From positions 1-30,220 of IMG/VR virus record IMGVR_UViG_3300017988_000514: DNA of 30,220 nucleotides, one strand, 5' to 3'. Source of the stretch: a virus (Duplodnaviria > Caudoviricetes). The notes below the pieces were generated by a model, which ran no database searches, had not been told where the DNA came from, and saw only the letters and a program-made list of their open reading frames with translations. A program made the translations under genes and the position numbers. Each line of letters begins with the position of its first letter. Within the stretch, counting starts at the first letter, position 1. This document shows positions 3,791-9,761 of this stretch, one piece after another.

Positions 3791-5722
3791 TTAGCCCTCT
3801 TTGGTTGGGGATACACGGGTGATTCGGTATCTCATATTATTAATACTGTCCGCTCCCCATCCATCGGGGTTTGAGTCAATGTTATCTTTCAATTCTGCCA
3901 AACTGTTGAATGTTTCCGCGTAATCCCCATTTCGCGTAAACAAATGAACCATCCTACGAGAAGGTACCCCTCGGTGTTCCCCCTCACCGGCTGGTATGTA
4001 AGCAATCGGTAGCCCCCGATAACGATGGGTGTATGGTTGGCCTTCCTTGCTTCTAAGATAAGCATCCACTGCCGCTGCCTCTTTGGTGTTATTACTGGCC
4101 GCTTCACAGATTTGACGAATTTGATCCCCAGATTGTTGTAACAGTTTGATTACCCCGTTATGGTAATTGCCAGAGTTTTTTACCACATTTTTCTGTAGCT
4201 CTTCCCAAGTGACCCAAACAAGTCCGTCTGTTTCCTCATGAAATTGTAGGTTACTGGAGCCCCCCGCCATTGGGTTCAATTCAAACTCCGTAGGTACCAG
4301 TCCAAGGAAGTTGAAATACTTGAACTTTCCATCCGTAAACACATAGGCGGGGACGAGCCGAATACTTCCTTGATACCCTGTTTCCTCCGCCATCTCTTCT
4401 TTGGCACTTTCAGCCGGGGACATTCCCGGTTGAATAGCTCCTCCGATAGTTCCGAAACAATCCCCCTGATTCACTTCAGGGCTACGCCACGCCAAACAAA
4501 TGCGTCCGGTGGTGGTACATATAGGAAGGATGCCCGACGCTGCTCCTCCCGCCCCAACCCAATATCCTTTCTCATCTTCTCGAAAGGCCCTTTTAGATGA
4601 CGTTTTCTCTTTATCCTGTTGTTGCTCATTCTTTTCATCATCTGGTTTCAGATCAGTTTCGGGGTTGGACTCAGTTTCTGAGGGTTCAATGACCTCATTT
4701 CCCTGCTCATCCACTGCTTCGGCCTTATCCGAGCTTTCAGGGACATTTTCTTTGGAAAGGATTGACCAGTTTGTGTAGATAGTTGGAACGGGGTAGTTGC
4801 CTTCTTTTAACTCTGCCACAGAAGGAAAGTCTGCAAAGGTAACGCAACGACCGTCCGGGAATTTAACAACCCACTCCTTCTTTGAGTTGGAATAGATAGC
4901 CATATCATCCCCAATAGTGGCATAGGGAGAATAGGCTTCATCCCCAACAAAAATACTCTTAGGGATTCCCTCAGCATTTGTCGTCTTCATCTCTACGTCA
5001 TTATCAAACTTAATGGTAGGGGTGAATTCAGGAACTCGTGAACCTTTCTTCTTGTAAATTGCGTTGAGCAGGTTATTCTTGAAACCAGTCCCACTTAAAG
5101 GGATCGTTCCCCGAGGGTTCCCCATCATGTCATATACGATGATGTACATAGGATTGGGTTGAGACTTCAAACTACGGCTGCGGAAATTACGAATGACGCT
5201 CCGTGCATCGTTGACTGTAGTTTTAGACGGTTTTTCATAAGTAAGTTCCAAGTGACGTTGTACAGGGGGTCGTTTAATGGTTTTTCCTGATGCCGTAACT
5301 ACTTTACTGTAAACTTCATTAACAAAGTGGGGATCAATCCGAAACGTACCCTCGAAAACCTTTACTGTGGGGTCTTTACTGATGGCTGACAGGGCTTTAT
5401 CACTATCCGATTCACCAGTAATCCCTTTAAAACACATCAATGCTGCTGCATAGATTTTTACAATAATGCTTTCCTCAAAATTCAAACTTAGCATAAATGC
5501 GGACATTTCATCTAATAACGCGTGGACCGCTTCCGCAACCAACTCACTCATCGTGGAGGGTTTATCCTCAACCAGCGGGAACTTCAATGAAAACACAGTA
5601 AAGTTGGGAATTCCAAGGTCTAAGGTAATCACTGCATAGGGTCTGGCGTCACGCACAACCGTGATAGAAAGGCCACCAGTGGCAGGTGAAAGATAGGCGT
5701 TTTTGAGAGTCTCTAAATTCAT
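3791..5722 (-). CDS. Modular 643-aa protein containing a Nudix hydrolase domain
   Basis: Nudix-box-like GGAIQPGMSPAESAKEEMAEETGY (about 4373-4444), preceded by AASGILPICTTTGRICLAWRS and followed by ETDGLVWVTWEEL. An acidic linker precedes the domain. Confidence 0.85.
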   Translation of the reverse strand: MNLETLKNAYLSPATGGLSITVVRDARPYAVITLDLGIPNFTVFSLKFPLVEDKPSTMSELVAEAVHALLDEMSAFMLSLNFEESIIVKIYAAALMCFKGITGESDSDKALSAISKDPTVKVFEGTFRIDPHFVNEVYSKVVTASGKTIKRPPVQRHLELTYEKPSKTTVNDARSVIRNFRSRSLKSQPNPMYIIVYDMMGNPRGTIPLSGTGFKNNLLNAIYKKKGSRVPEFTPTIKFDNDVEMKTTNAEGIPKSIFVGDEAYSPYATIGDDMAIYSNSKKEWVVKFPDGRCVTFADFPSVAELKEGNYPVPTIYTNWSILSKENVPESSDKAEAVDEQGNEVIEPSETESNPETDLKPDDEKNEQQQDKEKTSSKRAFREDEKGYWVGAGGAASGILPICTTTGRICLAWRSPEVNQGDCFGTIGGAIQPGMSPAESAKEEMAEETGYQGSIRLVPAYVFTDGKFKYFNFLGLVPTEFELNPMAGGSSNLQFHEETDGLVWVTWEELQKNVVKNSGNYHNGVIKLLQQSGDQIRQICEAASNNTKEAAAVDAYLRSKEGQPYTHRYRGLPIAYIPAGEGEHRGVPSRRMVHLFTRNGDYAETFNSLAELKDNIDSNPDGWGADSINNMRYRITRVSPTKEG

Positions 5723-5809
5723 GGGTATTCTTATTCTTATGATGATATAGGGTTATTGAGCTACCCAACTTGAAGGAACCCTACCTTCAAACCTGCCTCC
5801 AACCCCTAT

Positions 5810-5829
5810 CTATTAAAGGAATCGGTAGT
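5810..5829 (-). promoter_or_regulatory. Candidate phage late-promoter motif, copy C (ACTACCGATTCCTTTAATAG)
   Basis: Copy of the shared motif upstream of the 643-aa gene, where minus-strand transcription would have to restart after the plus-strand island. Confidence 0.55.
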
Positions 5830-5845
5830 TTTCTAATAACCTACT

Positions 5846-5880
5846 CCTTGACCTCCGTGACACGTCACGGGGGTTGAAGG
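5846..5880. repeat. Inverted repeat / hairpin 1
   Basis: Core CCGTGAC-AC-GTCACGG (5855-5870), extendable through CCTTGACCT/GGGTTGAAGG with G-U pairs and a bulge. Confidence 0.75.
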
Positions 5881-5881
5881 C

Positions 5882-5916
5882 TATTTGGTGCCGAAGCCCC
5901 TCTTCGGCACCAAATA
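5882..5916. repeat. Perfect 15-bp inverted repeat / hairpin 2
   Basis: TATTTGGTGCCGAAG-cccct-CTTCGGCACCAAATA; no T-tract follows it on either strand. Confidence 0.9.
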
Positions 5917-5928
5917 AAGCTCACCAAG

Positions 5929-5963
5929 TGTCACTTATGCAACTTATGTCACTTATGTCACTT
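5929..5963. repeat. Tandem 9-bp direct repeats, four copies (TGTCACTTA consensus)
   Basis: tgtcactta-tgcaactta-tgtcactta-tgtcactt, followed by the AT-rich tract ttcaaataaatttaaat. Confidence 0.85.
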
Positions 5964-5993
5964 CCTCTAGTTCAAATAAATTTAAATCGGGGC

Positions 5994-6021
5994 TTGCAAA
6001 TCTGTACATCAGTGGTATTAT
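5994..6021 (+). promoter_or_regulatory. Sigma70-type promoter with extended -10 for the 6069 ORF
   Basis: TTGCAA (5994-5999), 16 nt spacer, TATTAT (6016-6021) preceded by TGG. Confidence 0.65.
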
Positions 6022-6068
6022 GTGTTCAGAAAGAATGTTCCAAGAAAAAATTTAGAAGAGGCTCAAGT

Positions 6069-6587
6069 ATGAATCAACGTGAGTTTTTTACTGCTATAGC
6101 GGGAGCAACTGGATTTGCACTCATTGCCCCCAAACTTTTTTCGACTTCAACCGGACGACCCGGTGAAGTGGAGATGCCCACTCTTAATCAGATTTGTGAT
6201 GGGTTTAGTACTATTCACAAAGAAGGTTTAGCAGTGAGGCATGTCTGGGTTCATGCAGATGACCTTCGGAAATTTAGAAAAACCATGGAACCCGCCTACC
6301 CCGAGGGGAGAGAAGACCGCGACCATCTCTGGGGAGCTTACATCAACCCCATACCCGCAAATCAAAAGCGTGGGACCGTATGGCTTCAAAGTGCTGTGAA
6401 GAATGAAAAAGTCCTTGCAATTAGAGTCAATGGGAAACAGGCAGCATCTATTTATACTCTCACAGTTGACCTCAATGGAACACCCCGCCGCCGAAATGTC
6501 CATATAACTAAAGAACCCCACGATCCCCACTTTTGGGCAGTGGATGATCTGATGCCACGTGCCGCAAAACCATTGAAAAATGGGTAA
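6069..6587 (+). CDS. 172-aa protein: Tat-like N-terminal signal/anchor plus a putative major-capsid-protein-like fragment
   Basis: The likely start is ATG 6069 with GAGG SD at 6058-6061 (the track's start at 5874 runs through hairpins and repeats). N-terminus MNQREFFTAIAGATGFALIAP. The core ICDGFSTIHKEGLAVRHVWVHADDLRKF...HLWGAYI...GTVWL recalls HK97-fold capsid segments. The ORF is well supported; the product call is tentative. Confidence 0.7.
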   Translation: MNQREFFTAIAGATGFALIAPKLFSTSTGRPGEVEMPTLNQICDGFSTIHKEGLAVRHVWVHADDLRKFRKTMEPAYPEGREDRDHLWGAYINPIPANQKRGTVWLQSAVKNEKVLAIRVNGKQAASIYTLTVDLNGTPRRRNVHITKEPHDPHFWAVDDLMPRAAKPLKNG

Positions 6588-6600
6588 AATGTGGTATTAT
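6573..6600 (+). promoter_or_regulatory. Sigma70-type promoter with extended -10 driving the CRISPR mini-array
   Basis: TTGAAA (6573-6578), 16 nt spacer, TATTAT (6595-6600) preceded by TGG. It shares GTGGTATTAT and the spacing with the promoter at 5994-6021. Confidence 0.65.
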
Positions 6601-6676
6601 AGGGGTGTGAAAGGCCAGTTTTTCTTGTTTATTTTTAGTGTAATGCCCATAGATACAGGGGTTTGCTAGTAAATGA

Positions 6677-6909
6677 CCTGTGGTTATAGTGGATTTGTCG
6701 TATGAATCCAACATGCCGTTGAACGCGACTGGAATGAGCACCCTGTGGTTATAGTGGATTTGTCGTATGAATCCAACTCAATCACGTTGAGCACGATCGC
6801 TGGCCCGCCTGTGGTTATAGTGGATTTGTCGTATGAATCCAACACATCCCCATTGATGGCATCGGGCATACCTCCTGTGGTTATAGTGGATTTGTCGTAT
6901 GAATCCAAT
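6677..6909 (+). CRISPR. CRISPR mini-array with 4 repeats and 3 spacers; no cas genes in the window
   Basis: 36-nt repeat CCTGTGGTTATAGTGGATTTGTCGTATGAATCCAAC at 6677-6712, 6742-6777, 6808-6843 and 6874-6909 (last base C>T in copy 4). Unique spacers at 6713-6741 (29 nt), 6778-6807 (30 nt) and 6844-6873 (30 nt). Orientation is inferred from the upstream promoter, the AT-rich leader and the variant last repeat. Confidence 0.92.
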
Positions 6910-6960
6910 ATTGGTGGTATCCAAGTTGAGGATTTGTTTATCGGAATAAAAGACCTTCGT

Positions 6961-6995
6961 ACAAGACGAGATCGAACGCGACGAGACACGACAAG
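6961..6995. repeat. Degenerate pentanucleotide tandem repeat (7 units)
   Basis: ACAAG ACGAG ATCGA ACGCG ACGAG ACACG ACAAG. Confidence 0.65.
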
Positions 6996-7046
6996 ATTTG
7001 GTACCTTATCAATTACCATTATTACAACTGACCTACAAGTTAATTT

Positions 7047-9761
7047 TTACTCATACTCATAGGACTGAAGAATGTCACTTCCCCCAATTTCCCATACAAG
7101 GTCCTGACGGGGCGCAAGCAATCCCATTGGATGGTTGATATCCCAGTTCGCCACTTCCCCTGTTACGGTGTTGGTTGTATCAATAACCTGAATCCAACTA
7201 TCCGAATTTGTCAGATAGTTGGAACCAATAAATCGCCACACGATGGAACCATCATAGGTTGGAACAGTTGAAGATTGACTAAATCCAATTCGAGCCGTTG
7301 CAACACTTTCCAACTGGGTTTCCGAGTTATAGTTACTGTGAACAATGGACATGGTGATACTCGTTGAAGTAAACGAGGTGACTAACAAAGTGAGTCCATT
7401 TAAGAAGGTAGCGTATGTGAAACCCAACAAAGCAATTAGGCTGGTGTTAGCCACAAGACCCATACCTGTAGTGCTATTTACGGCCAAAGTAAGTTGGTTG
7501 TTGAGAATTTGAACTGCCCCATAACTAGTCCCCACCGTAGCAATGGGAGAGGTGATTCCCGGAGTGGGTGGAGATTGGGGAGGAGACTGAGGAGATGATC
7601 CCGACGAGGCAATCTGAAGACTACCATAGTTGTCGATCATAAATTGTCCTGTGTAAAATGGCGTGCTGGGAGCCCACTGCCGGGTACCAAAAACGTACAA
7701 CCCATTAGCTGCTTGATAATACGCTTGATAGATAGAAGGTGAGGGTAGTGGTGTCCAATACATTTGATCTGTATCCGCAAGGGGGTCTTGATTGGTGTTT
7801 TCTTGAAGGGCTCGGTATAACTGCCAACCACCCGGAGTCCACATCCCTGCATTAAAGTTACCATCCTCACCCCAAAATCGGCCACGTACAAGGGTACCGA
7901 GAGGATATGCTGTAGAAGCACTCCACACCTGTGGAGAAACAGTTAGCTGCTGCCAAACAGAGGGAAGAATCGGGCTAAGCATTCGGCGACCGTAAGAAGA
8001 TAAAGTAGTGGTGGGGTTGTTTACATCAAAAATAGGAGCCTGATACAACATCGGATTGAAGGGTGGTTCCTCCACCTGTTGAACAATGATTTGCAAAATG
8101 TCATCAATACCACCTGCACTTATCGTTCCATCTGCCGTGGCATTTGGAATAGCCTGTGAAACAATAATAGCAGTGTTCCCCCCAATAAGTGTGGCTGAAA
8201 CTACGGTATAGATTCCATCATTACCTGTGCTACCTGAAACTGTAGCCACTCCTGTGGCTGGTAGATATGAGATTTGATCCCCTGCAACTGTAAACGTCTT
8301 GGTACCTTGATTGACTGCTATGATTGCAAAAAGGGTACAGTTTGTATTCTGGTAGTACCCCTGATAATACCCTTGTTGTGAGGTGGGCAATGCAGCGTAG
8401 GCCGCGATGGTAATCTGCTGTGTACCAATATTGATCCACACCAAAGAGGTTGGGGGACTTAAAGGGGGACTGGACAGACCATCCATTGTTGTACCTTGAA
8501 GAATGGGGTTCCATGTTGGGAGAATAGTGCCTGTTATCCCACTTGTAAGAGCCAGTTGAATATTTCCATTTGAGTCTTGGATTATTGTACCGGCTAAAAT
8601 CTCTGTGAGTGGAATCCACCCAACTATAGGCGGTTGAGTAAGAACATAAGCAACAAGAGAGTAGTAACCCATTTGCTGCTTTGTTAAAGTGTTTAACTGA
8701 AACTGTGTCAGATAACGGGGGCTCAAAAAACAGTCCACATTTTCGTTAGAACCAAATACAGCGGTAAATTCCAAACCCACATGGGCTGGCTTTGCTAAAT
8801 CAATAGCACCATAAAGGGTGTTGGTGATTTGTTGCAACTCAGTCAAGCTCTCCACATCTGTGAAGGGGTCTGAACCTCCCACATTAACACTCACTAACAC
8901 CGTGTTACGGTCGCTTTGATCATAGAACCCACCGGGTACAATTTGTTTGTATAGCTCCTCTACAACAATGTTCTTGCCTGTGTAAGCATAGATGACATCT
9001 TGAATAGATTGAGGAGTTGCCCCTTCTTGATACGCCCCTAGAAGGTCTACCAGCATGTCACGGTACCCCACAGGATAGGTCAATGGGGCGGGAGCAGGAC
9101 CAGAATTCGTCCATACCACTGACCCATCAGTAGTTGTTTCTCCAAGAGAAAGAGCCCATGATGGTTCTTGTAATCCTGTTTGGCCGGGGGTGGTAGCTAC
9201 TTGAAGGTTTCCATTACTATCAAGAACAACCGCACGGAGGAAAGCTCCGGTGTTTGCTTTCCAACCACCAAAAGAAGATGCTCCAAAGTCCCCCATGTCA
9301 AACTGGGAAGACTGTTGAAAAATCCCGGTGATGTACAAAGGGGCTGCGTACTGCCGTTTGACATCAGCCGGGGTCAGGTAGGTTGGGTTCTTTGCAACAA
9401 TGTCGTATGAGTACATATACTCGATACGAGCCAACTCCATGGAAATCGCACGAAGGAAGGCACCCCAGATGCTCTGGTCATTTCGCGTGGTGTAGTAGTT
9501 TGCCAACGCGTTGATGAGCGATTGAAACCGGGCGTCTTCATATAACAAGAGGTCTTCCCGACTGCGTAAATAGAATTGATCCTCCTGTGTAATGACAGGC
9601 ATCTGTACCCAGACCAAGGCATTCTGGTCAGGCTCCTGATTCAGTGAGCCCAAGGTATCTACGCAGATGTAGGTAAACCTACCATATTGCACTGAATCGA
9701 GATAGCTGTAGGTTACGGTAGCTGACCATACTCCTCGTGGATTATAAAGAGGCGATGCCAT
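7047..9761 (-). CDS. Baseplate wedge protein, gpI/gp7-like, carrying Trp-rich carbohydrate-binding-like modules (904 aa)
   Basis: Lies directly downstream of the J-like gene. IDLAKPAHVGLEF contains the KPAH motif typical of gpI-like proteins. Several W...DSNG..Q....G..G...P.W.......T.DG..VW repeats. Confidence 0.7.
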   Translation of the reverse strand: MASPLYNPRGVWSATVTYSYLDSVQYGRFTYICVDTLGSLNQEPDQNALVWVQMPVITQEDQFYLRSREDLLLYEDARFQSLINALANYYTTRNDQSIWGAFLRAISMELARIEYMYSYDIVAKNPTYLTPADVKRQYAAPLYITGIFQQSSQFDMGDFGASSFGGWKANTGAFLRAVVLDSNGNLQVATTPGQTGLQEPSWALSLGETTTDGSVVWTNSGPAPAPLTYPVGYRDMLVDLLGAYQEGATPQSIQDVIYAYTGKNIVVEELYKQIVPGGFYDQSDRNTVLVSVNVGGSDPFTDVESLTELQQITNTLYGAIDLAKPAHVGLEFTAVFGSNENVDCFLSPRYLTQFQLNTLTKQQMGYYSLVAYVLTQPPIVGWIPLTEILAGTIIQDSNGNIQLALTSGITGTILPTWNPILQGTTMDGLSSPPLSPPTSLVWINIGTQQITIAAYAALPTSQQGYYQGYYQNTNCTLFAIIAVNQGTKTFTVAGDQISYLPATGVATVSGSTGNDGIYTVVSATLIGGNTAIIVSQAIPNATADGTISAGGIDDILQIIVQQVEEPPFNPMLYQAPIFDVNNPTTTLSSYGRRMLSPILPSVWQQLTVSPQVWSASTAYPLGTLVRGRFWGEDGNFNAGMWTPGGWQLYRALQENTNQDPLADTDQMYWTPLPSPSIYQAYYQAANGLYVFGTRQWAPSTPFYTGQFMIDNYGSLQIASSGSSPQSPPQSPPTPGITSPIATVGTSYGAVQILNNQLTLAVNSTTGMGLVANTSLIALLGFTYATFLNGLTLLVTSFTSTSITMSIVHSNYNSETQLESVATARIGFSQSSTVPTYDGSIVWRFIGSNYLTNSDSWIQVIDTTNTVTGEVANWDINHPMGLLAPRQDLVWEIGGSDILQSYEYE

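Follow-up and report, generated by a model that had tools for sequence, protein, structure and literature searches.

A CRISPR mini-array in a phage insert

Does the CRISPR mini-array carried by virus record IMGVR_UViG_3300017988_000514 guide a protein, and if so of which type and against what target? The window, i.e. the whole stretch of 30,220 nucleotides that was analysed, contains four 36-nt repeats and three spacers (29, 30 and 30 nt) at 6677..6909. On the + strand, repeat 1 (6677..6712), repeat 2 (6742..6777) and repeat 3 (6808..6843) are identical, and the terminal repeat 4 (6874..6909) differs from them by a C>T change of its last base alone. Spacer 1 (6713..6741), spacer 2 (6778..6807) and spacer 3 (6844..6873), on the same strand, show no mutual similarity. 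The repeat begins with CC and ends with CAAC; its positions 2-6 are CTGTG and its positions 16-21 GATTTG. An earlier note on this DNA had described the same repeat and spacer lengths and the same motifs, and both descriptions are borne out with repeat starts at 6677, 6742, 6808 and 6874. No further copy of the repeat is present in the window within 14 mismatches, and self-targeting of the spacers inside the window is ruled out by at least 10 mismatches.

In run X3, a phage contig has an identical leader and a different 29-nt spacer in the place of spacer 1, i.e. the leader end of the array varies between strains. The phage arrays of runs X1 and X2 both contain spacer 2. Identical, regularly placed repeats, spacers that are each unique, a leader and polar variation mark the locus as a CRISPR array.

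The 30-kb contig, a virus record, carries baseplate, Ig-domain, NUDIX and Dps-like genes. The earlier note called the array an orphan, and it is indeed an orphan mini-array with a class 2-type 36/30 layout. None of the 16 ORFs scanned in the contig matches a cas family. Using the neighbouring 904-aa protein (55-74% identity), we identified 11 related phage loci. The longest related phage record has 231 kb at a rated completeness of 74%, so this wetland phage is likely a jumbo phage. From the relatives a genome of about 300 kb is expected, with about 90% of it outside the contig.

The array lies in a 1.3-kb insert (5723..7046, no strand assigned) in the structural region, between a NUDIX-domain gene and the 904-aa structural gene. 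At this site, the 11 related phage loci are all without an array and without a copy of the repeat. In the eight loci with mapped ORFs, the NUDIX and 904-aa genes are 3-92 nt apart or have other small genes between them, and in a blastn search with 5501-7200 the relatives match essentially in the flanking genes only. An array finder gave no convincing array in the whole of the relatives G002 and G005, nor any from G003, G004 or the first 20 kb of G006 among its best 60 candidates, and the 231-kb and 184-kb relatives have neither Cas9 nor an array. The small genes in the gap differ among the relatives (loci L003, L009, L010 and L012), which suggests that the gap is an insertion hotspot.

Upstream of the array, the insert encodes a 172-aa orphan phage protein (6069..6587, + strand) that is not Cas-like. 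It has no Pfam, PHROG or NCBIfam match, and no viral locus with this ORF was found in the viral contigs. There is one near-identical database protein and a 29% homolog elsewhere in the relatives G002 and G003. Its Atlas look-alikes at 0.85 are mostly from Acidobacteriota, a lead only.

The insert also contains a strongly structured non-coding stretch at 5725-5960, with a 14-bp hairpin and four short tandem units near 5940-5965. The fold of 5725-5873 (+) has a z-score of -3.4, with none of 200 shuffles as good, and neither Rfam nor phages gave a match for the stretch. It may belong to the NUDIX gene as its leader RNA, or be the remnant of a mobile element. As a tracrRNA it was rejected, its pairing with the repeat being not above that of shuffles.

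A sigma-70-like promoter with an extended -10 element (10/12 consensus matches plus TG) is predicted at 6573..6600 on the + strand, 76 nt upstream of the array, and likely drives it. It is the best of four sites in 5600-7200. Shuffles yield 3.0 sites, so the support comes from its location and not from the site count. The leader (6601..6676, +) runs from this promoter to the first repeat, at the end with the variable spacer. No RNA contigs cover the array, those of X6 and X8 lying on neighbouring sequence only. The contigs of run X4 cover the upstream ORF only, and in run X7 none match the window.

Spacer 2 matches a methionine-synthesis gene of the likely host

In an exact scan of genome contigs, the sole hit of spacer 2 is a 30/30 match at L013:825-854 in G001, an Acidobacteriaceae MAG. 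The protospacer is inside an ORF (L013:449-1627, minus strand) with NF006396 as its best family (E 4e-99), i.e. a bifunctional homocysteine S-methyltransferase/MTHFR gene, and lies near codon 266, in the middle of the gene. The NF006396 score is under the cut-off because the G001 copy is frameshifted around codon 370. This frameshift, near L013 position 545 and about 100 codons downstream of the protospacer, is either an assembly error or a real lesion. The neighbours of the gene are ordinary chromosomal genes. Given transcription of the array from the + strand, spacer 2 is antisense to the target mRNA. Three congeneric genomes carry the target gene with 3, 3 and 4 mismatches to spacer 2.

The target is also seen in the metagenomes, where the spacer 2 sequence occurs with non-array, G001-like flanks in contigs of X1, X2, X3 and X5 (four of eight runs). 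The depth of the target contigs compared with the phage contigs is 34 vs 7-13 in X1, 17.6 vs 3-4 in X2 and 22.5 vs 3-6 in X3. In X1 the repeat has a depth of 32-42, next to 7-13 for the phage and 34 for the target, contig depth not being the same as copy number. These X1 depths hint that the targeted population is without this exact repeat. The target gene family is present in G001 and absent from all four related phage records, in which no phage-borne copy of the gene that could be the target was found.

Following PMC7162821, a phage array is taken to target the host chromosome if it has a spacer longer than 24 nt with at most one mismatch to a bacterial chromosome from the same samples, and spacer 2 has such a match. 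We regard it as very probable that an Acidobacteriaceae bacterium is the host of the phage. This assignment draws mainly on the spacer 2 match, independent support being weak: the matches of 188 II-C spacers of the family to this phage group do not exceed 18 nt, the Atlas look-alikes at 0.85 are a lead only, and the phage Dps is 44% identical to a protein in one of five genomes.

A target was found for one of the three spacers. For spacers 1 and 3 there is no credible target in the viral contigs, GenBank phages, plasmids and Acidobacteriaceae genomes searched. In the viral contigs, where close relatives may be missing, they have no exact 22-nt match, and in focused searches of 121 relatives each the best matches have 7-9 mismatches. 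As G001 is incomplete, with a size of only 2.6 Mb, spacers 1 and 3 may match host DNA missing from it.

Searches for other copies of the repeat

Exact pieces of the repeat gave no hits in the viral contigs, none in the genome contigs, and in the metagenomes only the window's own contig. An Rfam search of the repeat returned no hits at E up to 1, GenBank phages gave chance matches only and plasmids none. The identical repeat is absent from the 401 family, 217 genus and 301 phylum genomes searched.

A blastn search with the whole array matched 22 of the 401 family genomes and 8 of the 217 genus genomes. Those beyond the spacer 2 gene were rejected, having at least 5 mismatches over the whole length and lying in unrelated genes. 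A tandem CCAAC pattern occurs in 106 of 401 genomes, mostly as chance or coding repeats; among the matches listed, with 51 more outside the list, there are two II-C arrays. The skeleton of repeat ends and centre was found in 5 of 301 phylum genomes with one match each, and the three examined have no array. One of the four closest target-bearing genomes has a cas1, of type I-C and with a different repeat. The tandem scan of viral contigs covered 11 of 64 parts (121 loci) and may miss related viral arrays. The unpublished genomes G008, G179, G253, G670 and G917 are the basis of no claim.

Similarity to type II systems

To the repeat type we assign an even chance of being II-like. Cas9 is present in 13 of 301 family genomes, and the seven arrays recovered beside Acidobacteriaceae Cas9 all have 36-nt repeats with periods mostly of 66 and 65, as here. 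The earlier note had kept type II-C in play for its shared 36/30 geometry, and all seven II-C arrays of the host family do have the same periods. Their repeats, together with that of a viral Cas9 locus (L172), share 29-30-nt spacers and 15-18 of 36 identical bases with our array. The G080 repeat, in which GATTTG is in register, has 18/36 identical bases (shuffle p 0.0012, uncorrected and the best of seven). The host-family repeats end with TACACT, whereas this repeat does not.

Among the viral contigs, 36 loci have the end-and-centre skeleton of the repeat, 35 as single matches and one, L172, as a multi-copy array with 11 repeats beside a Cas9 (E 4e-88) and a tracrRNA. Its leader and its worn repeat are at the same ends as in our array, so that it has both the repeat skeleton and the array polarity in common with it. 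Outside the six bases forced by the pattern, the similarity is 12/30 and not significant (p 0.09).

The L172 locus (L172:2346-6720) is on G623, a complete 640-kb phage, and comprises a 1131-aa Cas9, a tracrRNA-like anti-repeat and the 11-repeat array. The RuvC and HNH catalytic positions of the Cas9 look conserved when compared with a bacterial Cas9, and no cas1-sized ORF was recognised by eye in the 12.5-kb locus.

In contrast to the host-family II-C arrays and L172, our contig has neither cas9 nor a tracrRNA. There is no tracrRNA or anti-repeat in the window, and no cas9 in the contig or in four related phage records, the phage genome being incomplete. The repeat was compared with five tracrRNAs and pairs with none of them better than shuffles do. 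Borrowing of a host-family Cas9 was rejected on these five tests, and as the host-family tracrRNAs do not fit, the effector is probably encoded by the phage.

A 742-nt contig of run X1 (record 7) contains the last 30 nt of the repeat (window 6814-6843) in another context, with 30 flanking letters visible. Judged by eye, the letters that follow would let repeat bases 1-5 pair again beyond a bulge of 3 nt. The contig may be an anti-repeat, i.e. a candidate tracrRNA; just as well, it may be the start of a second array, slippage having removed 3 nt from its first repeat. As an anti-repeat, it would give a duplex that bulges on the crRNA side alone, unlike those of the host family.

In chromosomal II-C arrays, transcription proceeds towards the variable end (PMC8092290). 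Here the promoter and the variable end are on the same side, a polarity that the L172 phage Cas9 locus appears to share. The same source knows II-C and VI-B repeats of equal length with common ends, so the geometry cannot separate these two types.

Viral arrays with similar ends are also found beside IscB (17/36 identical bases), beside TnpB/Cas12f, or alone. A 36-nt-repeat array at L146:4336-6165 lies beside an IscB, and one at L191:5850-7613 beside a TnpB/Cas12f-like protein. L157, L163, L178, L190, L236 and L242 are cas-less viral mini-arrays with 36-nt repeats, most of them ending with TCCAAC, and L242 has two short arrays, each after a duplicated gene piece. No Cas9 was found in five orphan-array records.

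Proposed role of the array

Our preferred reading, to which we give a probability of roughly 0.4 as a whole chain, is the following. The array would be transcribed from its own promoter on the + strand, as the promoter, the leader, the variable end and the worn last repeat suggest. Spacers would be captured during infection by a II-C-type Cas1-Cas2, for which the 29/30-nt ruler argues. The transcript would be processed with a cognate tracrRNA, and the resulting RNAs would guide a Cas9-type (type II) protein encoded outside the contig, probably elsewhere in the phage genome, 90% of which is unseen. The Cas9-like complex would then cut or block the host methionine-synthesis gene during infection. 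We favour DNA cutting as part of host take-over over blocking, and binding of the mRNA independent of a PAM is possible. For a tracrRNA-dependent effector, taken separately, the odds are even, and we lean slightly towards the array being of benefit to the phage.

PMC5796797 reports that II-C Cas9 can repress genes without a PAM, and PMC12669027 a phage variant II-C2 Cas9 with a dead RuvC. Phage arrays that target host genes, with or without effectors, have been published by Al-Shayeb et al. 2020 (PMC7162821). Our array resembles those of the huge phages in being compact, on a large phage, without adjacent acquisition genes and with a spacer matching a bacterium of the same sample. The targets named there are a sigma-70 gene and a glycyl-tRNA synthetase, whereas here it is methionine synthesis, and for this array no effector was seen. 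We found no report of a phage guide against methionine synthesis in a limited literature search; the supplementary tables of PMC7162821 might list this phage.

Alternative explanations

Spacer 2 might instead be a bystander, i.e. the array would be an ordinary mini-array against rivals, or a relic, and spacer 2 would have been taken from host DNA during infection and retained, being no burden to a lytic phage. Virus mini-arrays for inter-virus competition were reviewed by Koonin and Makarova 2024 (PMC11656645), and phage-phage targeting is treated in PMC13037316. Like our array, the inter-virus mini-arrays described there are Cas-less, have few spacers and are located on a viral genome. They have repeats identical to those of the host and target mostly related viruses, whereas here no host copy of the repeat was found in the genome contigs or the 401, 217 and 301 genomes (G001 being incomplete), spacers 1 and 3 have no exact 22-nt match to related viruses, and the sole target found is chromosomal.

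A single host match, located mid-gene near codon 266 and not at a promoter, fits such a capture, as does the fact that most relatives manage without an array; host-derived spacers are also readily acquired in II-C and VI-B systems (PMC8092290). Against this reading speak the three identical repeats, the intact promoter and the presence of spacer 2 in the phage array of two runs. Spacers 1 and 3 match no phage or plasmid searched, and the G+C content of all three spacers, 53-60%, is above that of the phage (45%), towards that of the host locus (61%). We consider a bystander spacer rather unlikely.

A type V effector is the next candidate. In this case the guide would have the repeat ahead of the spacer, and a Cas12j-, Cas12m- or dead Cas12f-like protein of the phage would bind the 3' hairpin of the repeat followed by AC, and cut or silence the host gene. 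The 3' hairpin does dominate the free repeat, with pair probabilities of about 0.99. Within the transcript its probability drops to 0.15-0.45 for repeats 1-3, and the best fold of the repeat is no better than chance (z -1.11, with 30 of 200 shuffles as good). The 36/30 viral array of L191, beside a TnpB/Cas12f protein, and a dead Cas14 that a phage aims at a host gene (PMC7162821) provide precedents. On the other side, the 5' flank of the one target ends with CGC, which is neither TTN nor TBN, the motifs given in PMC11933828, and PF07282 proteins are absent from all four related phage records. All in all, type V appears improbable.

The earlier note had proposed a divergent type VI-B (Cas13b family) repeat, with which a Cas13b/bt-like RNase would bind a spacer-repeat RNA and attack the host mRNA. 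What had suggested it is present: the 36-nt repeat, the spacers of about 30 nt and a central U-rich loop, none of them specific to VI-B. According to PMC7613696, the Cas13bt3 direct repeat is 36 nt long; its terminal stem has 4 pairs, its inner stem has 6, and its loop has GAUUU at 16-20 followed by GU. GATTTGT at 16-22 of our repeat matches this loop. The likeness stops at the stems, which do not form here: stem 1 has two of four pairs and stem 2 three of six, at +3.8 kcal/mol, and the 3' hairpin outcompetes them. The reverse strand does no better, with two pairs plus one G-U and three of six. The same 2/4 end pattern is found in the Cas9-linked L172 repeat, and an Acidobacteriaceae repeat linked to Cas9 likewise has GATTTG at 16-21. 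The earlier note also gave the repeat two alternative folds; these are far from equal, as the 3' hairpin dominates the free repeat and the long stem is at +0.7 kcal/mol with pair probabilities around 0.001.

Two further points fit type VI-B, the orientation of spacer 2 antisense to the mRNA, which with one spacer is a coin toss, and the leader-to-array polarity, which is that of VI-B arrays in PMC8092290. No cas13 was found: the contig has no cas13b, and in searches run without a positive control there is none in 81 relatives of the target genome or in five viral records. Collateral RNA cleavage would also be expected to harm a replicating phage. In the search for similar repeats, which the earlier note had proposed, the most similar effector-linked repeats (18/36) are beside Cas9, and no identical repeat and no effector came up. 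Closest repeats beside cas9 were what that note named as evidence against VI-B; they are found here, but at 18/36 identity the argument is weak. The GATTTG centre and the 36/30 geometry do not identify type VI-B. We find a VI-B effector quite improbable, and the label should be dropped.

Very unlikely, in our view, is a use of the array without any Cas protein of the phage, in which the transcript would pair with the host mRNA as antisense RNA or divert a host Cas protein as a decoy. Such a use would agree with the antisense match and with the lack of an effector among the sequences searched, and an RNAi-like role is proposed in PMC7162821, as are repeat decoys in PMC11656645. The replacement of the spacer at the leader end and the ruler-length spacers imply the action of Cas1-Cas2, and a decoy needs a host system with this repeat, of which none was found in the genomes searched.

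About as unlikely is a class 2 system not yet described, with a repeat family of its own and the effector gene in another part of the phage genome, which would shut down the supply of methionine and hence SAM in the host, as an RNA-guided counterpart of the phage T3 SAMase. That enzyme reportedly acts against SAM-dependent restriction and BREX defence, and a link of our array to such defence would be speculation.

Significance for the phage and its host

The Cas9-like reading and its alternatives start from the same array, which is a new case of a phage guide aimed at the likely host. Its host-gene target and its unassigned repeat make it worth following up. Through the phage-borne spacer, Acidobacteriaceae are linked to a group of uncultured jumbo phages, and the few host genes published as targets of phage guides are joined by a metabolic one. 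As no match to the repeat came up in the collections searched, its effector may be new, either Cas9-like or another class 2 protein. Whether phage guides manipulate the host or are passengers is a general question, for which this case offers an exact target and several samples.
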